A stretch of 64,000 nt of DNA from the sequence record OR167180; one strand, written 5' to 3'. Shown here in pieces: positions 2,923-47,431 of this stretch. A program made the position numbers and the translations under genes. The first letter of the stretch is position 1; each line of letters opens with the position of its first letter. The notes beneath the pieces are model-generated. The model worked only from the letters and a program-made list of their open reading frames with translations, had not been told where the DNA came from and ran no database searches. This stretch comes from Escherichia phage MIZ4.

Positions 2923-3705
2923 ATGGCAGTAGTTGGTGTTCCTGGTTGGATTGGAAGTTCAGCCGCAAATGAAACAGGGCAACGATGGATGAGTCAAGCG
3001 GCTGGTCAACTAAGATTGGGTGTTCCTTGCTGGATGAGTCAATTTTCAGGTCGCTCGCGAGAAATTATTCATACACTTGGTGCAGACCATAACTTCAATG
3101 GTCAGTGGTTCCGTGATAGATGCTTTGAGGCAGGTAGTACACCTATAGTGTTTAATATTACAGGTGATTTAGTATCATATTCTAAAGATGTTCCTTTATT
3201 CTTCATGTACGGGGATACACCAAATGAATATGTTCAGTTGAATATACATGGCGTAACGATGTATGGTCGTGGCGGGAATGGCGGTAGCAATGGTCCTGGA
3301 TCAGCCGGGGGGCATTGTATTCAAAATGATATTGGTGGGAGGCTAAGAATTAATAATGGCGGTGCTATCGCTGGCGGCGGTGGCGGTGGCGGTGGCGGGT
3401 ATTATTCTCCTTTTTCACAAATGAGATTAACCTTTGGCGGTGGCGGTGGGCGTCCGTTTGGTGCGCCCGGCGGATCTATTGATATGCAATCAGGCGCAAC
3501 TGCTGGTACTCTTTATGCGCCCGGATCGGGGTCCGTGAACGGTATCTATAATGGCGGAAGCGGTGGTGAGGTAGGCGCCGCAGGAGGTAGATGTAATATT
3601 CGTGGTCAAGGATCTGAATATAATGGCGGCGATTCTGGATATGCTGTTATAGGGTCTTCTCCAACGTGGCAAAATCGCGGAGCTATTTACGGACCGGCTG
3701 TTTAG
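2923..3705 (+). CDS. 38: Long tail fiber tip adhesin gp38 (T2/T6-type with glycine-rich motifs)
   Basis: 260 aa; conserved N-terminal gp37-binding region [13 protein letters not shown]..; multiple poly-Gly motifs ([24 protein letters not shown]) separating short variable segments; located directly after gene 37. Confidence 0.85.
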
Positions 3706-3769
3706 ATGTAATTATAAAAAGAATTAAGGAAAACTCCCACGGAAGGGGAACTACTAAGGAGAAACGGCT

Positions 3770-4009
3770 ATGGTCTATAATATCGTCATTGGTGCTTTGT
3801 CTAATTTCGGAATGAAACTATTGTCAAAGTTAATTAGTGAAAAGATGCTCACTAAAATTTTCTTCTATTGCGCTCGTCGTCTTGCGGCTTATACCAATAC
3901 GCCAATTGATGATCGTTTTGTGGAAGAACTTTATAAGGAGTTTAATAAAGATCAGTCAGAAGATAGTAACGAGCAAGATAAACCTAGTGATAGTCAAGTA
4001 CCTAAATAA
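3770..4009 (+). CDS. Hypothetical small protein (hydrophobic N-terminus, acidic C-terminus)
   Basis: 79-aa ORF with strong SD (AAGGAG) 7 nt upstream; same strand as 38 and t. Confidence 0.45.
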   Translation: MVYNIVIGALSNFGMKLLSKLISEKMLTKIFFYCARRLAAYTNTPIDDRFVEELYKEFNKDQSEDSNEQDKPSDSQVPK

Positions 4010-4042
4010 GAGTACACTGTCATAGTTATCTTAGGGCATTAT

Positions 4043-4699
4043 ATGCAAGTTTCTGAAAAAGGGAAAGACTTTGCTATCTCAAATGTCCTGCGCGCTATTT
4101 TCACAACTAAAAGCACGGAGTTGCTCGTACTTCGTGTTTTTGCTGCCGTCGTGTTGTCCATATTAGCATTTGTCGTTTATAGTAAAAACGAGTTATTTGC
4201 GCTTTATAAAGAGACTCGTTATGAGACTTATGCTCACGTTCTCCAGGTAGAGAAAGACCGCAATTTTGATAATGCAGCACAGGAGCAGTTACAGATAGTT
4301 CATGTGTCGGCTGATGCCGATTTTTCTGCTGTTTTTAGTTTTCGTCCGAAAAACCTAAACTATTTTGTTGATTTGGTGGCATATGAAGGAAAGTTACCGC
4401 ATACAATCGATGAAAAAAATTTAGGCGGATTCCCTATCAATAAAACGAGTGAAGAATATCGTAGGCATCTTTTAGGTAAATCCTATTTTACCGATAAAGA
4501 TTTCCAGTATATTCCATCAAGAGAAAAGAAATTAGAGAGTATCGATATAGGGGTTATGTATTCTTGTCCTATATTCAATCTCGACAATGTCTATTCTGGT
4601 AGTATCTCCATTGCATGGAAGAATAAACCGGATATTGACATTGAGAATTTAGATACTCTTTGCAATCAATCTGCCAGAATCCTCGGAAGGATTAGATAA
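4043..4699 (+). CDS. t: Holin (lysis protein T)
   Basis: 218 aa, same length as T4 holin T; shared blocks ..ETYAHVL..EQLQIVHVSADADFSAVFSFRPKNLNYFVDLVAYEGKLP..MYSCPIFNLDNVY..ARILGR; N-terminal TM segment; position after 38. Confidence 0.9.
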   Translation: MQVSEKGKDFAISNVLRAIFTTKSTELLVLRVFAAVVLSILAFVVYSKNELFALYKETRYETYAHVLQVEKDRNFDNAAQEQLQIVHVSADADFSAVFSFRPKNLNYFVDLVAYEGKLPHTIDEKNLGGFPINKTSEEYRRHLLGKSYFTDKDFQYIPSREKKLESIDIGVMYSCPIFNLDNVYSGSISIAWKNKPDIDIENLDTLCNQSARILGRIR

Positions 4700-4703
4700 C
4701 TTA

Positions 4704-4737
4704 AAGGGGAAGCCTTTCGGCCTCCCCTTCTTTTTTA
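4704..4737. terminator. Bidirectional terminator hairpin at convergent junction (t vs leftward genes)
   Basis: aaggggaagcc-tttc-ggcctcccctt imperfect inverted repeat followed by tttttt. Confidence 0.5.
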
Positions 4738-4983
4738 TTGGCGCATAGAAGCCCCTGAATCACATTTTGACGCTGTATGATGAAAACATGTAGCGTACCA
4801 GTCATCGGCTTGTTTGTCTTCGTCAGAGAACGCATAATTTCGTTGTATACCGTTTTCTACTTTGACCAGTGCAATAGCTGTTTCTGGAAGATCAATCAAT
4901 CGGACAAAATCACCATCTTCCCACTCTACACGAGCAATATCATAACCCATCTCAAAATATACAATCGCTTGTTCTAATTTCAT
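4735..4983 (-). CDS. Hypothetical protein (82 aa)
   Basis: ORF in leftward gene array; no recognisable domain. Confidence 0.4.
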   Translation of the reverse strand: MKLEQAIVYFEMGYDIARVEWEDGDFVRLIDLPETAIALVKVENGIQRNYAFSDEDKQADDWYATCFHHTASKCDSGASMRQ

Positions 4984-5312
4984 TCTGGAAACTTCCCGTA
5001 AATGTTCTCTGCCAACATACGCGCATCGCTAATGATATCTTTCATGCTATGACCGTAGTGTTCAGTCATTGAGTTGACACAATCAACAAAGAAATTATAA
5101 CGGCGACGGTTTAAGATTTCTTCTCTGTTATAGTTTTCATACTTGACGGTCGAGTGTGCTTTCTCGATTGCCTTAATCGCTATATTGACTTCATTAATAA
5201 TGGTTTTAGCATTATATGCGCCACGACGGATCAGGATATTTGTCAATTCTCTTGCAATATCTTGCAATTCTTCATATTCATGTTCAAACATAATCAACCT
5301 CTCAAAATACAA
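4980..5312 (-). CDS. Hypothetical protein (110 aa)
   Basis: ORF with 4-nt overlap to neighbour (translational coupling pattern). Confidence 0.5.
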   Translation of the reverse strand: MYFERLIMFEHEYEELQDIARELTNILIRRGAYNAKTIINEVNIAIKAIEKAHSTVKYENYNREEILNRRRYNFFVDCVNSMTEHYGHSMKDIISDARMLAENIYGKFPE

Positions 5313-5315
5313 TCC

Positions 5316-5660
5316 TTACAGATGAAAACCCGTTACGATCACCGCATCGATCATACCGCTAGGGATAAACGGTTCACCCTCTTTTATCTCAACTTTGAAT
5401 TGATGCCATTTCGCTAATACTTCTTCCGGTACACCCAGCGATTCGGCGTCTGCTTTAGTTTCATCCATAATCCAGCTAGGCTGCATGAGAGCATAGTTTA
5501 CATAGTCCATTTCTGGGGTCATGTCATCAATGTTAATATATTTGCAGTTGACGCGTTTCAGAATTTCAAATTCTTTATCATCAACCTGTACCATGTACAA
5601 TTCGGTAGTTTCTGGAATCAGTTCCCATACAATCAGTACATTTTTCATAATTAGCCTCAC
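5316..5660 (-). CDS. Hypothetical protein (114 aa)
   Basis: ORF in tight leftward array. Confidence 0.5.
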   Translation of the reverse strand: MRLIMKNVLIVWELIPETTELYMVQVDDKEFEILKRVNCKYINIDDMTPEMDYVNYALMQPSWIMDETKADAESLGVPEEVLAKWHQFKVEIKEGEPFIPSGMIDAVIVTGFHL

Positions 5661-6025
5661 TTAACAAAGATTTTCTTTAATGCTTTCAGGATAGTTGCTT
5701 CCGGTGATTCTTCCGGTGGAGGAAGCAATTCTACCACTTCCTCTTCCAACTCGATATAGTCTACCAGATATTCTACATAGAATGCAAGTGCTTCCATGAA
5801 ATTAGATGCTACATCCGATTCACCACAAGCGCCTACATGCATTGTATAAACATCACTGCGATCAAGTTTGTGGATGCTTCCCAGATAGTTTCGGTTATAC
5901 CAGACTTCCCACACTTTCAGCTTTCCGGTTTTGGTTGCTGTTTTATAATCGGTTTCGTAATGATGCAATTGACGTTGCAAATCATTGATAATAACACATT
6001 TTTCGTAATTGTTTTGAATTTCCAT
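5657..6025 (-). CDS. Hypothetical protein (122 aa)
   Basis: ORF in tight leftward array; start overlaps upstream stop. Confidence 0.5.
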   Translation of the reverse strand: MEIQNNYEKCVIINDLQRQLHHYETDYKTATKTGKLKVWEVWYNRNYLGSIHKLDRSDVYTMHVGACGESDVASNFMEALAFYVEYLVDYIELEEEVVELLPPPEESPEATILKALKKIFVK

Positions 6026-6035
6026 GATGTAATCC

Positions 6036-6227
6036 TCACTTATCGTTAAGAAGTTCTAAAACTTTCTGTCGTACTTTGTCAATATTAGTTGATTCAAAAA
6101 CTGTACGGTATCCCCAGCTTTGACCGTATGATCGCGAGCAATCCCCATATCCCCATTGTTCAACCTGATAGTATTCAAGGAATGGGTGCTGCCGAACTAT
6201 GATACCATCGCGATTAAAAATTACCAT
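6036..6227 (-). CDS. Hypothetical protein (63 aa)
   Basis: Short ORF in array. Confidence 0.35.
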   Translation of the reverse strand: MVIFNRDGIIVRQHPFLEYYQVEQWGYGDCSRSYGQSWGYRTVFESTNIDKVRQKVLELLNDK

Positions 6228-6250
6228 AATATAATCCTCACGTCAACAAC

Positions 6251-6538
6251 TTATTTTCGGTTGTGGTCACGATATGTTTTAAAATATCCCTCGTACCACG
6301 GTAAAACATCTGGATTTTTACCACTATACAGACCTTTAACCATCATGTCAATAAGGCCATCTGGTGTTTGATAGTTTCCAGCTTTTATAAGCTCTCTGAT
6401 TAAAATCTCTCTGTATATGTCTTTCGGATCTTCGTAATCAACTTGTATTGTGGTTGTGGTCTCATTCAATTTGGTTTCTGGAGTATCTCGCATTGCATCC
6501 CACCAATCTTTTGTGATCTTCATGTTATTGAATTGCAT
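6251..6538 (-). CDS. Hypothetical protein (95 aa)
   Basis: ORF in array. Confidence 0.45.
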   Translation of the reverse strand: MQFNNMKITKDWWDAMRDTPETKLNETTTTIQVDYEDPKDIYREILIRELIKAGNYQTPDGLIDMMVKGLYSGKNPDVLPWYEGYFKTYRDHNRK

Positions 6539-6549
6539 AATTTAACCTC

Positions 6550-7308
6550 TTACTTGCACACGTATTGATCTACATCAATTGCGCCACCGAATGTAGGATG
6601 ACGTTTTTCAAATCGAATCGTTCCGTCGTTTGGTTCGAAAACGGAGTATTCATATAGATCTTTCTTGCCAACATTCTTATAAAACCCGCCTTTAGTCATA
6701 ACGGTTTCTTGTACGTTTGCTTTGTGTACGTTGTATTCGTCAATGTATACAAAATCAACCATCTTCCCATTTTTAATGGTTACTTTAAGATCTCCTGGTT
6801 GGTTTCCATATTTTGCATACAGTGGAGCTTCTTTAATTTTGGTGGAAATTCCATCTTTCATACTCCACTCATAACGAACGGTGCATTGATAGGTAAAAGT
6901 TTCGACCTTCGGTTCTTCCACCACTTTTTCTTCCTGTTTCGGTTGTTCTTCTTCAACCTTCGCAGAAGTCTCTGAATCGCTTTCTGACGCGGTTTCTTCT
7001 TTAGGTAATACATTCATCAAGTTTTGGATTTGAGCGTTGTATACAGCCTCCAGTGGCTGAATCTGCCCGATATTGATCATTGTATCACGAACAGTTTTAT
7101 TCCAGTTGCGTTGCTCTTGTTTAAGAGACGGATCAATCTTAACAGCCTTAACATATACTTCATGAAGTTTCGAATCCAGTGCGGAGATTGACTCATTAGC
7201 ACAAATAAACTTCTCTGATTTGGTAGTGGCTTTAGCGCAATCAAAGGACGCAGCATTAGCACCGAAAGCAGTAGCGGAAAGAACGATAGCAGCGATAATG
7301 TTTTTCAT
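6550..7308 (-). CDS. Secreted protein with N-terminal DUF1311/LprI-like (lysozyme-inhibitor-like) domain
   Basis: Signal peptide MKNIIAAIVLSATAFGANA; Cys-framed motif FDCAKATTKSEKFICANESISALDSKLHEVY..QRNWNKTVRD typical of DUF1311; acidic/Lys-rich linker; own promoter upstream. Confidence 0.6.
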   Translation of the reverse strand: MKNIIAAIVLSATAFGANAASFDCAKATTKSEKFICANESISALDSKLHEVYVKAVKIDPSLKQEQRNWNKTVRDTMINIGQIQPLEAVYNAQIQNLMNVLPKEETASESDSETSAKVEEEQPKQEEKVVEEPKVETFTYQCTVRYEWSMKDGISTKIKEAPLYAKYGNQPGDLKVTIKNGKMVDFVYIDEYNVHKANVQETVMTKGGFYKNVGKKDLYEYSVFEPNDGTIRFEKRHPTFGGAIDVDQYVCK

Positions 7309-7342
7309 AATATATTCCTCAATGTTTTGTCTTGATGGGAGT

Positions 7343-7372
7343 ATCTTACTACTCCCTTAATCCGGTGTCAAC
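7343..7372 (-). promoter_or_regulatory. Sigma70-like early promoter (TTGACA-18-TAAGAT) with GGGAGTA/TACTCCC palindrome around the -10
   Basis: Minus-strand read of 7372..7343; conserved upstream AAAAAGTAGTTGACA block. Confidence 0.55.
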
Positions 7373-7378
7373 TACTTT

Positions 7379-7591
7379 TTAATTTTTACCCGCTCGTGCA
7401 TTAATACGCATTTTCTGCATAGCCATGATCTGGTTTACTGCTTCTTCTTTACGTTCTTGCGTGATAACGTGACTAGATTCAGCAAACTCTCCCGCAACTT
7501 CTTCGACGATCTCGCGAACTTGAGAACGTCCAAAGATGCGGTTTCCTTCGTAGCTCATAAATTCAGTCACTACTTGCTCAATAGATTTCAT
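7379..7591 (-). CDS. Hypothetical small protein (70 aa)
   Basis: ORF with GGAGAA SD, preceded by promoter. Confidence 0.5.
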   Translation of the reverse strand: MKSIEQVVTEFMSYEGNRIFGRSQVREIVEEVAGEFAESSHVITQERKEEAVNQIMAMQKMRINARAGKN

Positions 7592-7624
7592 GTGATTCTC
7601 CTTCTTTCGTTTCGGTGTGGGAGT

Positions 7625-7653
7625 ATGTTAATACTCCCATTTCTTTACGTCAA
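7625..7653 (-). promoter_or_regulatory. Sigma70-like early promoter (TTGACG-17-TAACAT) with GGGAGTA palindrome
   Basis: Minus-strand motif; upstream AAAAACTGGTTGAC block. Confidence 0.45.
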
Positions 7654-7660
7654 CCAGTTT

Positions 7661-7903
7661 TTAGAAATTTTTCGCTTCTTCTTCGGTCATCATCACCGCG
7701 CATTCGTGCATAACTTTGAAAACCGGGTCAATCATATCGAATGCTTCGCGGGACAGTTTACGAGAAGCGATTTTGATTGCTTCAACGTCTTCTACTACAG
7801 GAACAAAAACAGTTTTCAGTTCGTCGAGCATGGCAGCTTCTTTTTCATTCAGGAAGATTCCAGCGTCGTACAATGCAACTTCGATAACATTAACTTTAAC
7901 CAT
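7661..7903 (-). CDS. Hypothetical small protein (80 aa; start moved to internal ATG with GGAGG SD)
   Basis: ORF-track start at 7966 would overlap the promoter; ATG at 7903 has AACTGGAGGAAATAAAA upstream. Confidence 0.5.
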   Translation of the reverse strand: MVKVNVIEVALYDAGIFLNEKEAAMLDELKTVFVPVVEDVEAIKIASRKLSREAFDMIDPVFKVMHECAVMMTEEEAKNF

Positions 7904-7937
7904 TTTTATTTCCTCCAGTTCGTTTCGGTATGGGAGT

Positions 7938-7966
7938 ATAATACTACCGATGACCTTTGGCGTCAA
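7938..7966 (-). promoter_or_regulatory. Sigma70-like early promoter (TTGACG-17-TATTAT)
   Basis: Minus-strand motif with GGGAGTA palindrome arm nearby. Confidence 0.5.
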
Positions 7967-8167
7967 CTAGTTTTTGTTATTTTCGTGAAAATTTTTAGTC
8001 GCCTCATGTGCTTTTCGCTGGGCTTCTTGTTGTGCTTGCTGGCGTGCTGCCTCTTGTGAAGCCATAACGGAAGCATTTGCAGCAGTTACAGCCGCTACCA
8101 TCGCTGCGGTATTAGCATTTACAGTACATGCACTAGCCAGCAAAGCAATTGCAATCATTTTCTTCAT
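7967..8167 (-). CDS. Small secreted/lipoprotein-like protein (66 aa)
   Basis: N-terminal signal MKKMIAIALLASAC with lipobox-like LASAC; Ala/Gln-rich body. Confidence 0.45.
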   Translation of the reverse strand: MKKMIAIALLASACTVNANTAAMVAAVTAANASVMASQEAARQQAQQEAQRKAHEATKNFHENNKN

Positions 8168-8334
8168 AGTTTCCCCTTTAGGTTATTTTCGACCTTCATC
8201 CATTCCGCGTATTCTTGTGCGGCTACTTTCGGATCTAGTCCGTCTTCGTACATTGCATCAAGTAATTCTTTGTCGGTGGGCTTATATCCTAGATAAGCCT
8301 CCACCCGATTTTTCCAAATTTTATACCAGTTCAT
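8164..8334 (-). CDS. Hypothetical small protein (start at internal ATG)
   Basis: Trimmed from ORF 8164..8403 to avoid overlap with upstream gene; start uncertain. Confidence 0.35.
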   Translation of the reverse strand: MNWYKIWKNRVEAYLGYKPTDKELLDAMYEDGLDPKVAAQEYAEWMKVENNLKGKL

Positions 8335-8338
8335 ATTA

Positions 8339-8611
8339 TCACCAATCAAGAGCGCGTGTCTCTGCGTCTTCCCATGCTTGATCCATAACAGCCTTGAAAA
8401 CATATTCTAAAGTATCATCTTTAGAGAATCCGAAGACCTTAGACGGGATATCTTCAATTGCTACTCCAGCAACTTCTGCATTACGCGCTTGGCAATAATG
8501 CAACTCTAAGTTATCGAGATAGCGACCGCCTAATTTCTCCATATCATCCCAGCATTTCCAGTAACCTACTTTATTTGCAATTGCTAACACTTTGCTGTTT
8601 TCGTTGCACAT
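8339..8611 (-). CDS. Hypothetical protein (start at internal ATG with AAGGAGAATCAAAG SD)
   Basis: ORF 8339..8674 trimmed to ATG preceded by strong SD; promoter upstream. Confidence 0.45.
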   Translation of the reverse strand: MCNENSKVLAIANKVGYWKCWDDMEKLGGRYLDNLELHYCQARNAEVAGVAIEDIPSKVFGFSKDDTLEYVFKAVMDQAWEDAETRALDW

Positions 8612-8642
8612 CTTTGATTCTCCTTTTGTTTGGTATGTGTGT

Positions 8643-8672
8643 ATTATGCGAGGCTGGATTCGTGAAGTCAAC
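8643..8672 (-). promoter_or_regulatory. Sigma70-like early promoter (TTGACT-18-CATAAT)
   Basis: Minus-strand motif immediately downstream of a terminator hairpin. Confidence 0.45.
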
Positions 8673-8676
8673 AACT

Positions 8677-8711
8677 TTTTAAAATAAAAAAGCCGACCAC
8701 AAGGATCGGCT
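8677..8711 (-). terminator. Rho-independent terminator-like hairpin after ORF 8722..9117
   Basis: agccgacc..ggatcggct inverted repeat followed on the minus strand by a T-run. Confidence 0.45.
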
Positions 8712-8721
8712 TAATAATCAG

Positions 8722-9117
8722 TTACTTACTAAATTTCTTTTTGGCTTCGTCTACCGCATGAGATGCCAGTACCGCAGCCGCATGTGCACTTTTATCTGTG
8801 TTGCAGAGAACGCCCAGATAAACATCACGCCAAAGTTTAATCATCTCGTAGATCATATCAATATCATTTTCTTGTTTGTTGGCGATGCTATTCGTTGTTA
8901 TCTGGTAAGGTAACGGCTTAATCTGTACTGGTTCCGCCATAGGGCTAATCGGTTGCGGATCAGTCATAATAGGTGCTGTTGTGGGTGGTGTTTTCCATAC
9001 GCCATTATTCCACGGTTTAATCGTTGTATCGTAAAGTTTATAAGGATTTTTGTCTGGGTCAACCATCCAGGCATGATGAGTACCCAAACCATTTGAAGTA
9101 ATGCGTCGTTCAGTCAT
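8722..9117 (-). CDS. Hypothetical protein (131 aa)
   Basis: ORF in array. Confidence 0.5.
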   Translation of the reverse strand: MTERRITSNGLGTHHAWMVDPDKNPYKLYDTTIKPWNNGVWKTPPTTAPIMTDPQPISPMAEPVQIKPLPYQITTNSIANKQENDIDMIYEMIKLWRDVYLGVLCNTDKSAHAAAVLASHAVDEAKKKFSK

Positions 9118-9319
9118 ACTTTCCCTCCAAAAATTCTTTCATCAAATAGTCTATCGTTGCTCTGTGTTCTGGTGTGTTTGTTATCTCTGCTAACTTGTTC
9201 AGAGATTCAATAGTGATCCGGTTGGCTTCTTCCATAGTCTCAACGACCATTGGTACAATCTTTTTATTGTTGTACACGAAAGCCACATAACCGCCTTCTG
9301 GATATTCTTTCATAATCAA
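9110..9319 (-). CDS. Hypothetical protein (69 aa)
   Basis: ORF overlapping neighbours by a few nt. Confidence 0.45.
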   Translation of the reverse strand: MIMKEYPEGGYVAFVYNNKKIVPMVVETMEEANRITIESLNKLAEITNTPEHRATIDYLMKEFLEGKYD

Positions 9320-41172: not shown

Positions 41173-41727
41173 CTAAAAATTTTTAACACCATATTCACCA
41201 AAATAAAGATCAACCGCTTTGTCATAAGCTCTGGCCGCATCTTCTTCGTTGACATAATACCCAAGAGATATTAGTTTATCATTATTTCGTATTCTTGCAA
41301 CCCATTTCTTCGTATGTTTATGCCAGCTAACCCCTTTATACTTGCTTGCTTTATTCTTGTACTTTCCAACGTTACAAGCATTTTTCTTTGCGTCGGACTC
41401 TCTAAGATTGCGTGGTGCGTTGTTTAAAGGATTTCGGTCTATATGATCTATAATTTCTGGTTGTGTTCCATGCTCAAGAAACCATACAATACGATGTACA
41501 TATGGCTTTAAAACCCTCCCATTATCCATAACAATTGCAATTTGGAGATGATCCTGACTTTTAAAAGTTTTTACTTTATCTCCTGCCTTATAAAACTTTC
41601 CTTCGTAATTCTTTCCTCCGGCTCGGCTATTCTTTAAATGATAAAGAATACCATCGTCGTCATGTCTATATCTTTCTCGTATAATTCGTTGCGTTTCTTC
41701 ATCCCACAATTTGGAACGTCTACTCAT
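41173..41727 (-). CDS. HNH homing endonuclease with AP2 DNA-binding domain
   Basis: HNH core HRIVWFLEHG..IDHIDRNPLNN..N; C-terminal AP2-like YKGVSWHKHTKKWVARIRN..LGYYVNEEDAARAYD; sits where T4 has alpha-gt. Confidence 0.7.
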   Translation of the reverse strand: MSRRSKLWDEETQRIIRERYRHDDDGILYHLKNSRAGGKNYEGKFYKAGDKVKTFKSQDHLQIAIVMDNGRVLKPYVHRIVWFLEHGTQPEIIDHIDRNPLNNAPRNLRESDAKKNACNVGKYKNKASKYKGVSWHKHTKKWVARIRNNDKLISLGYYVNEEDAARAYDKAVDLYFGEYGVKNF

Positions 41728-42106: not shown

Positions 42107-42340
42107 TTATTTTACCTCTGGGATATAATCAATTATTAAAGAAAATTCATCTTCTGATACATTATAGCTATGTGAGATTGTACCCGTCAAGACCTCAAGA
42201 TCCGGTGATTTGATATTGCACGGATCGATAATCACCGGAACGCCGCAATCTCTCAAAAATAATTTGGCGAAATACGGCACAAGGTCAGTTTCAAACTCTG
42301 CTTCTTCCAGCAAACGGGAAATGTTAATTTTCAATCTCAT
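42107..42340 (-). CDS. Hypothetical protein (77 aa)
   Basis: ORF downstream of 55. Confidence 0.4.
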
Positions 42341-42857
42341 AAAATTGGTCCAGGCTAGGCAATTCCTCGGTCAATACATCTTCAACCTTTGGCGCTTTCG
42401 GTTTATTGACCGATTCCTCGTAGTTGTTGATTTTATCGTAAATGTCCTGTATGAATGCCTCATCAGCAATCTGGCACATATCAGCGTCGCGTTCGTCATA
42501 TACATGATGCACAAAATATTTGTATTTTGCGGCTGTCGCTGTTCTTTCTTTTTTAATGCGCTGCACAAAAGCATTAAAGCACGCTTGCGTGATGTAAGCA
42601 TGAGGATTTTTATACTTTGTCTCGTCAAAATTAATCAAACCCTTGACCGCCGCTTCGATTCCATCGTCGATCATTTCTTCGCGCCATGTTTGACTATAGC
42701 CAGAAAAGTTAAAACGCCGTGATAGATTTTTAGAGATTTGCATAATTGCCAGGCCGATTTGGTCACTCATTGGCACTTGCCGACCTTCTGCTGCAATTCG
42801 TTGTTTCCAACGGCAAATTTCTTCGTAAAGCTCTTTATTGTTTACATAATCAGACAC
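42324..42857 (-). CDS. 55: Late sigma factor gp55
   Basis: 177 aa; long near-identical block to T4 gp55 ([57 protein letters not shown]). Confidence 0.95.
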
Positions 42858-42897
42858 TTCGCACCCTCGCTATTATTTAGGAAATAACCCTTTCGGG

Positions 42898-44367
42898 CTA
42901 TTCCCCATTACCATTATACTTTCTTTGCTTAGTTATCCACACTCTAACCATCTCTACTGATTCACCGTCAGAGGGATCAAGAGTTTTTCCTTTTTTCTTC
43001 ATGCGGTACTTAAATCCGTTAAATCTTGCATTCTCTTGCTCGTTAAAGTCGAACATCTTTTTAAATGATTTTCTCCCTTTACGCTCACCGCATTCTAGCG
43101 GAATCATTCGGTCTGTTATTACATTGGCATTAGGTAGAAACGTTTTTAGATAATCTACCAACGCCCAATCAGGAACATATAGATTAACATTCTCCTTGCT
43201 CTCGTTGTCTCTCAGGTTACAACGCAAACATAATTGAAATGCTGGTTCCAGATAATCAGACACATGACGCGCTTTCAAAAACTCATTTGTCGGGAGATCA
43301 CAACTATTAGCAAGACCTTTTAAAATATCAATCTCCCATCGTTGAGGGTTAAAGCTGAACATCACAGCAACATTTTTATGATGAATGTAAGAGTTAAGAC
43401 CATAAGATCCGTAAGGTATCCGCTCACCAATACCATTTGTACACGCTTCACGGTCCCGATTCACGGTATAAATGAAGTCATCACCACATTCATTTTTAAC
43501 CATATCAACCAGACGTTCAAAGGTATTGTTTGTTTCTGACTGGTGACGCGACCATCGTTCGGAGTCCGTCATAAGGATGATGTTAACTCTATCTGTATTT
43601 TTATACTCTTTGAAATATAGTCTGGATTCTAGCGCACTCGGAACAAAATCGCAATTTGCATAGTATCGTAGATACTTCCCACTATATGTATCAAAGAGAT
43701 TTGCACATGCTATCGTAACCTTTTTAAAGTCTCCCCACGTACCGTGTTTGTTATCGTTCAAGAAAACAATTTTCGACCCATTCTTCCGGTGGCCTTCGTT
43801 ATGTTTTACCATAACGTTGATTTTCTTCTCTAATAACGCCTCATAAAGCCCTCTAAGAGAAGAATCGATCATATCAGTACCATCCTTTGCACTTTCTATC
43901 TTTTCTTTGATAGCGGCCTTCTCAGAGTCTTTTAGAACTAAGTTCTGTAGGCATTCCGATTCGTCGGCGATTGGTTCGCAATGCTTCGTGATAAGTTCAA
44001 GATTAGACTTAAACGGATACTCATTAAATTCAACCAGTTGAGGAACTTCATCAATGTAAAGAGCATAATCACCAAACATTTTTGAACGTTCCATATTAGA
44101 TAACGCTGTATGTGTAATGAATATCACATCAGCACCATCTTTAACTGATTGCATTATCGACGCTTGCACTGTCTTAAGGCTTCTTAGTCTTGTGCTATCA
44201 ATCAAGACAGCACGACCGCCCATTCTTTTAAACTTATTGTAAGATTGTTCACTTAAAACACGAGATGGCGAAGCAATAACCGCTTTTTCTTTTGTCTCTA
44301 GGACGTGGGAAAGTATAGCATCAGTTTTCCCCGCCGCTGGCAATGCGATTAATGTTTCAATCTTCAT
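42898..44367 (-). CDS. P-loop NTPase / helicase-like protein of unknown function (489 aa)
   Basis: Walker A-like ALPAAGKT at residues 8-15, Walker B-like LYIDEV ~100 aa downstream; Cys/His-rich basic C-terminal half; no confident family assignment. Confidence 0.55.
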   Translation of the reverse strand: MKIETLIALPAAGKTDAILSHVLETKEKAVIASPSRVLSEQSYNKFKRMGGRAVLIDSTRLRSLKTVQASIMQSVKDGADVIFITHTALSNMERSKMFGDYALYIDEVPQLVEFNEYPFKSNLELITKHCEPIADESECLQNLVLKDSEKAAIKEKIESAKDGTDMIDSSLRGLYEALLEKKINVMVKHNEGHRKNGSKIVFLNDNKHGTWGDFKKVTIACANLFDTYSGKYLRYYANCDFVPSALESRLYFKEYKNTDRVNIILMTDSERWSRHQSETNNTFERLVDMVKNECGDDFIYTVNRDREACTNGIGERIPYGSYGLNSYIHHKNVAVMFSFNPQRWEIDILKGLANSCDLPTNEFLKARHVSDYLEPAFQLCLRCNLRDNESKENVNLYVPDWALVDYLKTFLPNANVITDRMIPLECGERKGRKSFKKMFDFNEQENARFNGFKYRMKKKGKTLDPSDGESVEMVRVWITKQRKYNGNGE

Positions 44368-44672
44368 TAGAAACCCTTACGTCGTGCTTTCTGGCATTTC
44401 TTGATCATTTTATCAGAAATTTCGCGCTTAGGTGCAATCTCTTTCACACCGAAAGCACTAATGCCAAATTCAGAGAGAATATATTCAACTAACAATTCAC
44501 GCACACGCGCTTTACCGATATTCACGCCGTTATTTTTCAGATATGTCTGGCCTTCGACTTGCATCAGATCTAAATCAGCGTCGGTAATATTGATTTCTTC
44601 CATGCGCCCAAATCGAGAATAAACCATGTGTGCGATTGCATTGTGTACTAACATAATATATTCCTCACTCAA
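44367..44672 (-). CDS. Hypothetical protein (101 aa)
   Basis: ORF whose stop abuts the NTPase start. Confidence 0.45.
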   Translation of the reverse strand: MSEEYIMLVHNAIAHMVYSRFGRMEEINITDADLDLMQVEGQTYLKNNGVNIGKARVRELLVEYILSEFGISAFGVKEIAPKREISDKMIKKCQKARRKGF

Positions 44673-44675
44673 GAA

Positions 44676-44834
44676 TTACTTAATGATACTTACTTTACCA
44701 GATCCATGACAATGAGCGCAACACCCATCACCACGCAATCCTGTTCCGTTACAGTGTTTACACTTCTTCAACGGTAAAGCCATTATAGCAAATAAAGCAA
44801 TAATGAACACCGAAACTAAATTCTCAATAATCAT
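44676..44834 (-). CDS. Small membrane peptide with tandem CxxCxGxG (DnaJ-type) zinc-finger motifs (52 aa)
   Basis: Hand-translated MIIENLVSVFIIALFAIMALPLKKCKHCNGTGLRGDGCCAHCHGSGKVSIIK; not in ORF track (<60 aa). Confidence 0.4.
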   Translation of the reverse strand: MIIENLVSVFIIALFAIMALPLKKCKHCNGTGLRGDGCCAHCHGSGKVSIIK

Positions 44835-45093
44835 AAATCTCCCTCAGTTCTTTATAGCCTCCAATGTGCTCGTTGTCAATGAATATCTGGGGGTATACAA
44901 ATCGGAGGCTCTTTGAGTTCAGCCTCCCCGCCAGTTCTTCAATCATATCACGGTCGGGAATAATGTCAACCCCAACCTGCTTGAATACTGGTTTAAGTGT
45001 ATACGGAATACCCAGATCATCCAGTAGCTTCATTGCACTAATACAACCATAACAATGATAAGCCTCTTTCGGTATGCCGTATATCTCGATCAT
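44824..45093 (-). CDS. Glutaredoxin/NrdH-like redoxin
   Basis: 89 aa; CYGC active-site motif near the N-terminus; thioredoxin-fold pattern. Confidence 0.6.
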   Translation of the reverse strand: MIEIYGIPKEAYHCYGCISAMKLLDDLGIPYTLKPVFKQVGVDIIPDRDMIEELAGRLNSKSLRFVYPQIFIDNEHIGGYKELREIYDY

Positions 45094-45611
45094 TTCTCAG
45101 CCTTTAATCTTTCTAGTTCTTCTTCCAGTTCCTTGATCCGTTGGTCACGTTCAAAGTCACGCTGCAACTTAGTGGCGAATACTCGTTTAAACTGATTGTA
45201 ATCATCGATTTTAAACACTTCTTCTTCGCCATAGCGACGCACAGAAACTTCGTAGTTGTTGAAAAATTGTTCCAACATTGCATCAGTAGTCAGTTCTGAC
45301 GACACCACTTTAAAATAACGTTCTTCGGATTGCAAAAACCAGTTGTGCGCGTATTCCCGTACATCATCAACATCTCGACAGGTGTATGTTTTTCCATCAA
45401 TTTCAATCGCAGAAACATATTCGATATCTGATGCAATTTTTTCAAAAGCGATAACTTTAAATGTACGGTCACCGATAAAGTCTGCTATTGCATCATTTGC
45501 AACACTGGTTGCAAAGGCTTTCCGCGCTCGCTCGTTTTTCCACTGATAGGTCATACCAACAACAAACATATTACCATCAACAAACATATTACCATCCTCG
45601 CTCTTTACCAA
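45090..45611 (-). CDS. Paralog family A member (173 aa; true start possibly internal)
   Basis: N-terminal G(K/M)TY.WK motif; DGNMFV repeat from an 18-bp tandem duplication; C-terminal coiled coil. Confidence 0.45.
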   Translation of the reverse strand: MVKSEDGNMFVDGNMFVVGMTYQWKNERARKAFATSVANDAIADFIGDRTFKVIAFEKIASDIEYVSAIEIDGKTYTCRDVDDVREYAHNWFLQSEERYFKVVSSELTTDAMLEQFFNNYEVSVRRYGEEEVFKIDDYNQFKRVFATKLQRDFERDQRIKELEEELERLKAEK

Positions 45612-46413
45612 TCAAAAATTCAACTTCACGACGTTTAATGTCTTCTTGAAGGTCTTTAATCTTCTGGCGATCTTGCATTATTTCGTCCATCTTGTCAAGT
45701 GCTGCGATGAAATCATCGAAACGTTCAAAGGTTTTACCTTCATTTGCTTCGCCAAATTTAACCATTGTCAGGCCGTAACGACTACTAAACAGACGTTTCA
45801 ACTGTCCAACGATTTTAGAATCAGTGGTTATAACTTCCAATTCTTCTACTTCACGAAAGAATTTTCTATCAGAATCAATAAACCAGCTAGTTCCTTTATG
45901 GTTGCTATCTTCGGTTGCACTCATTAGAGTATGGTCTTTACCATCAATTTCAATTACATCAATTTGCCCACATGGACGAACATTTTTAACAGTAAAAGGT
46001 CTATAATTTATTGCTCGTGCAATAACATAATTAAGATTAGATACGTTTTCAGCATAATGGCAGAAGTCGGTCATAGCATTCACGTCTTTCCAAGTATAAG
46101 TTTTACCAACTTCCCATTTCTGGGGAACTTCTTCAACTTCACGAAAGAATTTTCTATCGAATGGACTAAAGAAATATGTTGCAGTCCAAATGTCTTTTCC
46201 TGTAGCAGTTTTCGCCGTATGATAAACACCGTCTAGCTCTATTGCATTAATCCAACCGTTGCCATCGATCTCGATGATGGTAAATGGCTTGTCACCAATA
46301 GCTGCACTAATATCGCTGTTAAGTGGAGAAAGAACACCTTCTCCGTTAGTAATAAACTCAGTTTTAGCGTTTACATCTTTCCAAGTGTAAGTTTTACCAA
46401 TTTCCCATTTCAT
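45589..46413 (-). CDS. Paralog family A member with internal domain duplication (274 aa)
   Basis: Two copies of KWE.GKTYTWKDVNA..DRKFFREVEE module. Confidence 0.5.
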   Translation of the reverse strand: MKWEIGKTYTWKDVNAKTEFITNGEGVLSPLNSDISAAIGDKPFTIIEIDGNGWINAIELDGVYHTAKTATGKDIWTATYFFSPFDRKFFREVEEVPQKWEVGKTYTWKDVNAMTDFCHYAENVSNLNYVIARAINYRPFTVKNVRPCGQIDVIEIDGKDHTLMSATEDSNHKGTSWFIDSDRKFFREVEELEVITTDSKIVGQLKRLFSSRYGLTMVKFGEANEGKTFERFDDFIAALDKMDEIMQDRQKIKDLQEDIKRREVEFLIGKERGW

Positions 46414-46425
46414 AATATATTCCCC

Positions 46426-46905
46426 TTAACCGATTTTATCAAGTTCGTTTAATGCTTTCTCAGCTTCCTGTATAGCTTGCACCCTTTCCGGCATTTTGTC
46501 AAGAAAATCTTTCAACTCTTCAAAACTGGAGATATGACGCAAGGCATTAGCACCGATAGCCGCATGTGATTTGCATTCAAAGCGAATTTTATAATTATCC
46601 ATAGCCAATTTGAGAAGATCAATTAATTTAGATTCTTCTGGAATAATAATTTCTTCAAATCTGCTACGGTCATGATCCAGAAACCAACAAGATAGACCTA
46701 CATCGGTTGAACTCATATAAGTTCCATCATGAAGATAAACAGACCGCACGTATCCTTTTTTCGCATCAACCGACGCAACTTTAAACGGTAATCGCAGATA
46801 TTTCAAATAATCAACATCATACCATTTAAAAAATTGATTTGCATCTTTTACATCTTTCCACGCATAGGTCTTACCAGCTTCCCATTTCATAATATCATCT
46901 CTCAT
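46426..46905 (-). CDS. Paralog family A member (159 aa)
   Basis: MKWEAGKTYAWKDV.. N-terminus shared with neighbours. Confidence 0.5.
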   Translation of the reverse strand: MRDDIMKWEAGKTYAWKDVKDANQFFKWYDVDYLKYLRLPFKVASVDAKKGYVRSVYLHDGTYMSSTDVGLSCWFLDHDRSRFEEIIIPEESKLIDLLKLAMDNYKIRFECKSHAAIGANALRHISSFEELKDFLDKMPERVQAIQEAEKALNELDKIG

Positions 46906-47431
46906 TTTTGATACGTGATTCTAATTGGATCATACGGTCGCGCGTTTGTTTGTATTCTCGGATAGCACCGATCCGGCTAGGCATACCATCCAGTACGCTC
47001 TTAATACCTTCTAGGGTAGTAATTTTGGCAATGCTATTATGTAACCCCATCTTATCGATCAACTGAATGTCGTAGGCTTCCATAAGCAGACCCAGGCGTT
47101 CTAAAGTTAGGTCTTCTTCTTTTTCTTCCGAATCTGGAATCTTATGTTCAATAGTAACTTCGGTAAAGAAACGACGCTCACCCGACCAAAACCACACGCC
47201 GGAACAGCCAATAGGGGATTCTTTTAACGTCATAGAGTCGAAATTACTACCAATAATAGTAATTTCTCTAACATCACCATCATCGTCAAGGTCTTCTACC
47301 CTAAACGGGCGACCAGCCAACAAGTCAACAATACATCTGTTAATAGACGACGAAAATTTAGTCAGTTCGGCTTTCGACGCTTCGCATTCAATCTTGTAAG
47401 TTTTACCAACTTCCCATTCCATAATAATCAC
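46895..47431 (-). CDS. Paralog family A member (178 aa)
   Basis: MEWEVGKTYK.. and ERRFFTEV motifs shared with neighbours. Confidence 0.5.
   Translation of the reverse strand: MIIMEWEVGKTYKIECEASKAELTKFSSSINRCIVDLLAGRPFRVEDLDDDGDVREITIIGSNFDSMTLKESPIGCSGVWFWSGERRFFTEVTIEHKIPDSEEKEEDLTLERLGLLMEAYDIQLIDKMGLHNSIAKITTLEGIKSVLDGMPSRIGAIREYKQTRDRMIQLESRIKNER

Follow-up and report, generated by a model that had tools for sequence, protein, structure and literature searches.

A predicted SF2 helicase-like ATPase of a large uncharacterised protein family, encoded between the gp55.2 ortholog and gene 55 of the RB49-like Escherichia phage MIZ4

We have examined a 64,000-nucleotide stretch of Escherichia phage MIZ4 (sequence record OR167180; the whole stretch is referred to as the window) and, within it, a gene on the minus strand (42898..44367) that codes for a protein of 489 residues, the ortholog of RB49p044 (phrog_2467). 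A sequence-only reading of the window had described the product as an uncharacterised P-loop nucleoside triphosphatase which, with two small partner genes, might form an accessory module for host takeover or anti-defence. We re-annotate the protein as a putative superfamily 2 (SF2) ATPase of the helicase type and set the anti-defence module aside; the small genes upstream are independent of the helicase-like gene and are not its partners in a dedicated module.

The region from 42000 to 46000 matches Escherichia phage MIZ5 at 100% identity and 57 other RB49-like (Krischvirus) genomes at 96–99%, and the window is itself a Krischvirus (RB49-like) genome. All real genes of the region lie on the minus strand, and the GC skew is negative throughout. 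The order of transcription is nrdG, four paralogous open reading frames (ORFs), nrdH, an ORF of 52 residues, an ORF of 101 or 95 residues, the gene for the 489-residue protein and gene 55, and the string from nrdH to gene 55 corresponds to RB49p047 down to RB49p043. In this string nrdG comes first (47942-47433, minus strand), and the nrdH-type glutaredoxin gene (44824..45093, minus strand), identified by a Pfam Glutaredoxin match of 23.4 bits against a cut-off of 22.9 and by the RB49 annotation, is the neighbour upstream of the 52-residue ORF (44676..44834, minus strand; RB49p046, phrog_3931), which it overlaps by 11 nucleotides. Gene 55, for the late sigma factor (42324..42857, minus strand; phrog_234 at E 4.8e-63, and RB49p043 by annotation), lies directly downstream on the coding strand. 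The three ORFs that had been proposed, at 42898-44367 (489 residues), 44367-44672 (101 residues) and 44676-44834 (52 residues), are all present on the minus strand, and so is the overlap of stops and starts that had been noticed, the stop of the 101-residue ORF overlapping the start of the large gene in the sequence TAATG. The gene map also bears out a position between the nrd genes and gene 55. The direction, however, had been reversed: both small ORFs precede the 489-residue gene on the coding strand rather than following it, and the large gene is upstream, not downstream, of the late sigma factor gene. In the spacer of 40 nucleotides (42858-42897, minus strand) that separates its stop from the GTG with which gene 55 starts there is a short CCC-GAAA-GGG hairpin, below the reporting size of the terminator scan, followed by TTATTTCC.

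Motif I (Walker A), ALPAAGKT, occupies residues 8-15 (44323..44346, minus strand) and motif II (Walker B), LYIDEVP, residues 103-109 (44041..44061, minus strand), both assigned from sequence position and conservation; the Walker A-like ALPAAGKT and the Walker B-like LYIDEV (103-108) that had been picked out by eye were therefore correctly placed. In an alignment of 31 orthologs, with identities of 31–74%, 57 columns are invariant, and the conserved blocks read PAAGKT; SxSRxLSxQS, which resembles motif Ia; FITH; LYIDEVP; TIAxAN; FIYTxN; HGLN; FSYNP; and FQLCxRxNIR. The last of these corresponds to a motif VI-like segment, FQLCLRCNLR, at residues 377-386 (43210..43239, minus strand), assigned by conservation. 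P10, G13, K14 and T15 are invariant among the orthologs, as are Q378, R382 and R386 of the motif VI-like segment, the spacing of which is QxxxRxxxR where the canonical form is QxxGRxxR. Moreover, 141 distant homologues keep D106, E107, G323, N325, Q378, R382 and R386 without exception, and G13 and K14 in 86% and 87% of cases, respectively. The pattern in these distant members is the one expected of a working SF2 ATPase. Between the window and RB49 the gene differs by 8 synonymous codons and 1 non-synonymous codon; because of this bias and of the 57 invariant columns we regard the ORF as a real gene, and the codon comparison indicates that it is under purifying selection.

Profile libraries recognise the protein only in part. 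The Pfam DEAD family matches residues 11-130 at 27.3 bits (cut-off 26) and is matched by 15 of the 31 orthologs; Helicase_C of Pfam is matched by none of the 31, and NCBIfam gave no match for the MIZ4 protein. In PHROGs the protein falls into phrog_2467 (E 2.9e-175), annotated as of unknown function, almost every phage record listed calls the homologue hypothetical, and we found no paper that names the protein by accession, locus tag, PHROG or pVOG number, the one relevant publication being that of Kazlauskas et al. discussed below. The description of the protein as an uncharacterised P-loop enzyme thus agrees with the records. The profile and structure searches that had been proposed gave the DEAD match just above its cut-off and an SF2-like fold; no PDB sequence was matched. 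A further proposal, that some 350 residues after the Walker B motif form a Cys/His-rich basic region, does not hold: residues 141-489 contain 2.3% Cys and 2.0% His, with an isoelectric point of 8.6, and C130 and C380 are the only invariant cysteines. A zinc or iron-sulfur reading of the protein was ruled out by this composition and conservation.

In an AlphaFold2 model on the ortholog alignment (mean predicted local distance difference test score 86.9; predicted template modelling score 0.75), the chain begins with one RecA-like domain, which is interrupted after motif II by about 100 inserted residues; another RecA-like domain and a basic helical tail follow. The insertion domain (residues ~112-215; 43723..44034, minus strand), as delimited by the modelled secondary structure, separates motif II from the motif III-like TIAxAN (218-223) and contains two long helices, 147-162 and 166-179. 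The second RecA-like domain (residues ~255-420; 43108..43605, minus strand) includes HGLN (322-325) and motif VI. A low-confidence linker (426-431) leads into the tail (residues ~430-489; 42901..43080, minus strand), which is defined by the model together with conservation; it is predicted to form helices at 435-438, 443-458 and 468-484, and its residues E445 and W477 are invariant in the 31 orthologs.

The nearest solved folds found with Foldseek are XPD/Rad3, DinG and CasDinG, at template modelling scores of about 0.45-0.5, and Mfd and subunits of TFIIH are also among the structural matches. The nearest predicted viral structures belong to unnamed or uncharacterised phage proteins, including those of Agrobacterium phage Atu_ph07, Ralstonia phiRSL1 and Fusobacterium Fnu1. 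In XPD the Arch domain sits between motifs II and III. As judged by the order of motifs, the insertion of about 100 residues in the 489-residue protein is at the position of the Arch domain, and conserved motifs I, II and VI are common to it and to XPD/Rad3, DinG and CasDinG. It differs from them in several respects. The 4Fe-4S domain of XPD and DinG is missing, since there is no Cys before residue 130; from motif Ia to motif II, where XPD and DinG have that domain inserted, the MIZ4 protein has no more than some 60 residues, modelled as the usual strands and helices of a RecA-like domain. Its motif II reads DEVP rather than the DEAH of XPD and DinG, its motif VI has the QxxxRxxxR spacing, and at 489 residues it is shorter than most XPD/DinG helicases. 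No DEAD_2, Helicase_C_2, DinG or Csf4 profile of Pfam or PADLOC matched it; one distant relative, P0077 (see below), has no more than a weak N-terminal match to Csf4. The protein is XPD/DinG-like in its modelled architecture, and membership of that family is not established. T4 UvsW is likewise an SF2 ATPase of T4-type phages with two RecA-like domains.

The family to which the protein belongs by sequence similarity is a large, uncharacterised one of viruses and mobile elements (phrog_2467 and phrog_31024). Searched with a profile, 1.84 billion representative proteins yielded 1,330 clusters, formed at 50% identity, at E ≤ 1e-3, and 764 at E ≤ 1e-10. Kazlauskas et al. (2018) reported that some archaeo-eukaryotic primases (AEP) of the All3500 family carry C-terminal domains remotely similar to SF2 helicases, the closest homologues of which came from 'some T4-like phages' (pVOG1685) and from SPbeta (pVOG9714) and were uncharacterised; they predicted in silico a new family of helicases peculiar to viruses and plasmids, and described fusions to AEP primases and a link of pVOG9714 to UL9 (PMC5862659). 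The 489-residue protein fits the description, being an uncharacterised protein of a T4-like phage with a remotely SF2-like sequence, and its family is probably the pVOG1685/9714 helicase family; in contrast to the All3500 fusions, the protein in the window has no primase domain. One relative of 877 residues (P0126) fits the fusion described in that work (PMC5862659): ahead of a helicase domain, its residues 1-370 extend the N-terminus and contain IIVFDFDED and GSGHVY, similar to motifs I and II of AEP primases. The helicase part of P0126 matches the 489-residue family at E 1.5e-27, and in a tblastn search of cultured phages with that part T4-like phages come closest, including MIZ5 at 107060-108337, which overlaps the gene for the 489-residue protein. 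Pfam did not recognise the N-terminal extension as a primase. Other relatives of about 750-890 residues (P0043, P0064, P0066, P0070, P0077 and others) share a single C-terminal domain of about 330 residues, found in 58 of the 58 tested, with conserved LDxDxG, RYRVFIPT and GIDxSK segments that recall metal-binding motifs of primase-polymerases; the sole supporting match for this domain comes from P0043 (799 residues), to phrog_9765, 'DNA primase', at E 1e-8, and the genes around P0043 gave no further clue. In a plasmid collection the 489-residue protein had no match, and a distant relative used as the query retrieved five records only, in Sinorhizobium and Komagataeibacter.

The fold, the conserved motifs, the size and distribution of the family and the synteny are results of the analysis, and the substrate, polarity, timing and biological role given below are inferred. 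It would be a catalytically competent SF2 ATPase dependent on nucleic acid, most likely a DNA helicase or translocase. On a modest balance of probability, we take it to be an accessory DNA helicase or translocase of phage replication or recombination, which may unwind R-loops, D-loops or other obstacles in the phage DNA; any 5'-3' polarity is a guess from XPD and DinG. The gene is probably transcribed early, together with the nrd and 55.x genes, because no T4-type late promoter (TATAAATA) was found at or near the 55/nrd locus and because sigma-70-like sites lie upstream on the coding strand. Over the window as a whole, TATAAATA occurs at 2 sites only (31926 and 62668, both on the minus strand), against about 6.3 expected by chance.

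Several observations weigh against an accessory helicase. These phages already encode the usual T4-type helicases of replication and recombination, and the need for another is unexplained. Profiles detect the first RecA-like domain only, with no match to Helicase_C, DEAD_2 or DinG, and searches of PDB sequences, whether with the single protein or with the ortholog profile, returned nothing. Comparison of the extra domains of the longer relatives with Pfam, with PDB profiles and by hhalign gave either nothing or matches limited to the surroundings of the DxD motif, and the literature yielded no biochemical or genetic study of any member of the family. Finally, the corresponding neighbourhood in T4 holds ORFans, 55.1 and 55.2, that modify host proteins (PMC4396842), which leaves room for a host-directed role.

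The ORF that overlaps the start of the helicase-like gene is the ortholog of T4 gp55.2, as judged from its similarity and gene order. Its frame is open as far as a TTG at 44672, which gives 101 residues, and an ATG at 44654, behind a GAGGA, gives 95; RB49p045, annotated as gp55.2 with 288 nucleotides (95 residues), matches the ATG (44367..44654, minus strand). The product scores 99.2 bits against Pfam DUF7570 (cut-off 27), NCBIfam giving no match, and is 42% identical to T4 gp55.2 (E 9e-20). The gene lies, as in T4, two genes upstream of gene 55; in T4 it precedes gene 55.1, and in the window it precedes the helicase-like gene. T4 gp55.2 is an inhibitor of E. coli topoisomerase I that alters supercoiling and improves phage fitness (PMC4396842). 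Inhibition of topoisomerase I was demonstrated for the T4 protein alone, and would be a putative activity of the RB49-type protein. The sequence-only reading had counted this ORF as part of a module of unknown function; it is, on this evidence, an ortholog of a protein of known function that mostly occurs without the helicase-like gene.

The co-occurrence of these genes was assessed by tblastn against 50,697 phage records. The helicase-like gene is in 243 of them, from Krischvirus, Aeromonas T4-like phages, the RB16/RB43 group and Proteus, Serratia, Cronobacter, Erwinia and other phages, and gp55.2 in about 1,092, T4 included, most of which do not have the helicase-like gene. That gene was not found in T4 by tblastn, including at the T4 locus, and we regard it as dispensable, since it is missing from T4 and from the phages closest to T4. 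In many Straboviridae genera the protein is 31-49% identical and is encoded at a fixed locus: the same slot upstream of gene 55 is occupied in RB49, in Aeromonas phages 65, PX29 and Aes508, in Proteus PM2, Erwinia Cronus, Serratia PS2 and Cronobacter LPCS28. When 29 helicase loci from IMG/VR were searched with purpose-built hidden Markov models, 28 had a 55.2 homolog no more than 2 kb upstream and in the same orientation, as did nine of the nine annotated phage loci that were checked; 55.2 abutted or overlapped the helicase start in 21 of the 29, and gene 55 was directly downstream in 21. Thus, the helicase-like gene is almost always near 55.2, yet 55.2 occurs independently of it. In T4 the order is 55.2, then 55.1 (71 residues), then gene 55, so that the helicase-like gene lies in the slot of 55.1; T4 gene 55.1 was considered as a homologue and proved unrelated by comparison. 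In the T4-related phages the gene appears to be an old, vertically inherited one with its place between 55.2 and gene 55.

Some loci depart from this arrangement. In the RB16/RB43 group the pair of 55.2 and the helicase-like gene is kept and is followed by the tail-fibre gene 34 instead of gene 55; in the RB16 locus (3666-9143) and in six further loci a rearrangement breakpoint lies just after the helicase-like gene. From 2 to 5 genes intervene between 55.2 and the helicase-like gene in Aes508, Serratia PS2 and Erwinia Cronus, and in Aeromonas phage Aes508 a DprA-like recombination-mediator gene (3429-4004 of the locus) overlaps the helicase start. The DprA-like gene is a second neighbour concerned with DNA metabolism, specific to the Aes508 lineage. 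A DprA-like annotation is also found under the helicase match in phages 25 and 50AhydR13PP. Lastly, Atu_ph07 and PH357, which carry distant relatives of the protein, have no 55.2 nearby.

This conserved neighbourhood raises the question of whether the helicase-like protein and gp55.2 act as a functional pair in DNA topology, the former processing R-loops or supercoils under the topoisomerase I block, or gp55.2 regulating the helicase. The near-constant presence of 55.2 upstream, the frequent contact between the two genes, which in the window takes the form of the TAATG overlap, and their persistence as a pair in the RB16/RB43 group, where gene 55 no longer follows, would all suit such a partnership, as would the effect of T4 gp55.2 on topoisomerase I and supercoiling (PMC4396842). 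However, 55.2 is far more widespread than the helicase-like gene and works in T4 in its absence, genes intervene in the three phages named above, the relatives in Atu_ph07 and PH357 have no 55.2 beside them, and the adjacency may reflect the gene order that T4-like phages in general conserve. We therefore consider a functional pair unlikely, if somewhat less so than the alternatives that follow.

The 52-residue ORF bears on the idea of an anti-defence module. The N-terminal segment of its product is hydrophobic (Kyte-Doolittle mean of about 2.4 over 19 residues); CxxCxGxG occurs twice, at residues 25 and 39, 14 residues apart, so that the earlier description of a membrane peptide with tandem motifs was accurate. 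Two such motifs would be enough for a single four-Cys zinc site of the type found in DnaJ modules, joined here to one hydrophobic helix at the N-terminus; the score for Pfam DnaJ_CXXCXGXG, 14.6 bits, is below the cut-off of 32.7, and the DnaJ-type matches in NCBIfam are far below their cut-offs. The ORF belongs to phrog_3931, listed without known function. It was found in 61 records, 58 from the Krischvirus group at at least 96% identity and 3 weak partial matches elsewhere (tblastn), and a small CxxCxGxG ORF occurs in 2 of the 29 IMG/VR helicase loci, both Krischvirus; among the sampled loci it was seen only in RB49 and those two contigs. The predicted membrane zinc-finger peptide is thus essentially confined to Krischvirus and was wrongly taken for a partner of the helicase-like protein. 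With 61 records for the 52-residue ORF, 243 for the helicase-like gene and about 1,092 for gp55.2, the accessory module of three genes fails on co-occurrence.

The helicase-like protein might still, on its own, be an effector of anti-defence or host takeover that removes or disables host defence or DNA-bound complexes, for instance by stripping surveillance complexes that form R-loops. Its gene lies in the plastic nrd-55 region, in which T4 ORFans act on host proteins (PMC4396842), and is dispensable in the T4 lineage, and the CRISPR-associated DinG is among the closest solved folds. However, PADLOC gave no meaningful match, neither of the supposed partner genes varies together with the helicase-like gene, and a protein 31-49% identical at a fixed locus across many Straboviridae genera has the look of vertical inheritance rather than of the patchy turnover expected of counter-defence. 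Moreover, the primase-like extensions in the family, and the literature, tie it to the replication of mobile elements (PMC5862659). We hold a role in anti-defence or host takeover, as the sequence-only reading had proposed, to be improbable.

It seems equally doubtful that the protein is a replication initiator, a helicase that opens phage origins in the manner of herpesvirus UL9 and a stand-alone form of the primase-helicases of mobile elements. Such a role is suggested by the link of pVOG9714 to UL9 and by the fusions to AEP primases (PMC5862659), by the primase-like extensions of the relatives, and by the conserved basic helical tail, which in the model could bind DNA or a partner protein. 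However, the Pfam family Herpes_ori_bp is matched by 0 of the 31 orthologs, the T4-like proteins do not carry the extension domains, and the gene is absent from T4. Moreover, phages of the T4 type start replication at R-loops and recombination intermediates with the help of gp41, gp59 and gp61. That the protein is instead a translocase coupled to transcription, an SF2 motor associated with RNA polymerase (compare Mfd, RapA, or XPD in TFIIH) that aids the gp55-dependent late switch, we think very unlikely: in 21 of 29 loci gene 55 follows its gene directly, and Mfd and TFIIH subunits are among its structural matches, but it stands apart from gene 55 in the RB16/RB43 group, Pfam detected no domain for interaction with RNA polymerase and, to our knowledge, late transcription in T4 works without any such protein. 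For all four alternatives, the gp55.2 partnership included, the support goes no further than the place of the gene or a remote similarity of structure.

An accessory helicase thus remains the reading that we favour. What was already known is the helicase family of viruses and mobile elements, flagged in silico, and the function of gp55.2 in T4. T4-type phages are a reference for the enzymology of replication and recombination, and 243 of their relatives carry a conserved motor of the helicase type that T4 lacks; its substrate would add a component to the DNA-metabolism toolkit of T4-like phages and would provide a first functional anchor for a family of more than 1,300 clusters, some of them fused to primase-like domains. 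Two bolder possibilities, to which we give little credence, are that the helicase and gp55.2 form a two-protein system for topology or R-loops, the helicase half of which was lost in T4-type phages, or that the protein is the stripped-down core of a new primase-helicase replicon family of mobile elements, which T4-like phages would have retained for some other DNA transaction. The former, if true, would be a phage counterpart of the helicase-topoisomerase partnerships of cells.

Two other groups of genes in the window were noted. Between nrdG and nrdH (45090-47431, minus strand) lie the four tandem paralogous ORFs, of 173, 274, 159 and 178 residues, which are 27-32% identical (E down to 8e-13), are annotated as hypothetical in RB49 and share an N-terminal motif resembling W-E-x-GKTY-x-WKD; the ORF of 274 residues contains an internal duplication of the paralogous unit. 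In the interval between gene 47 and a-gt.4, an ORF of 184 residues (41173-41727, minus strand) is the counterpart of RB49p040, for which the annotation gives an HNH endonuclease with a DNA-binding AP2 domain; it is probably the gene of a homing endonuclease inserted in the 47-55 interval.

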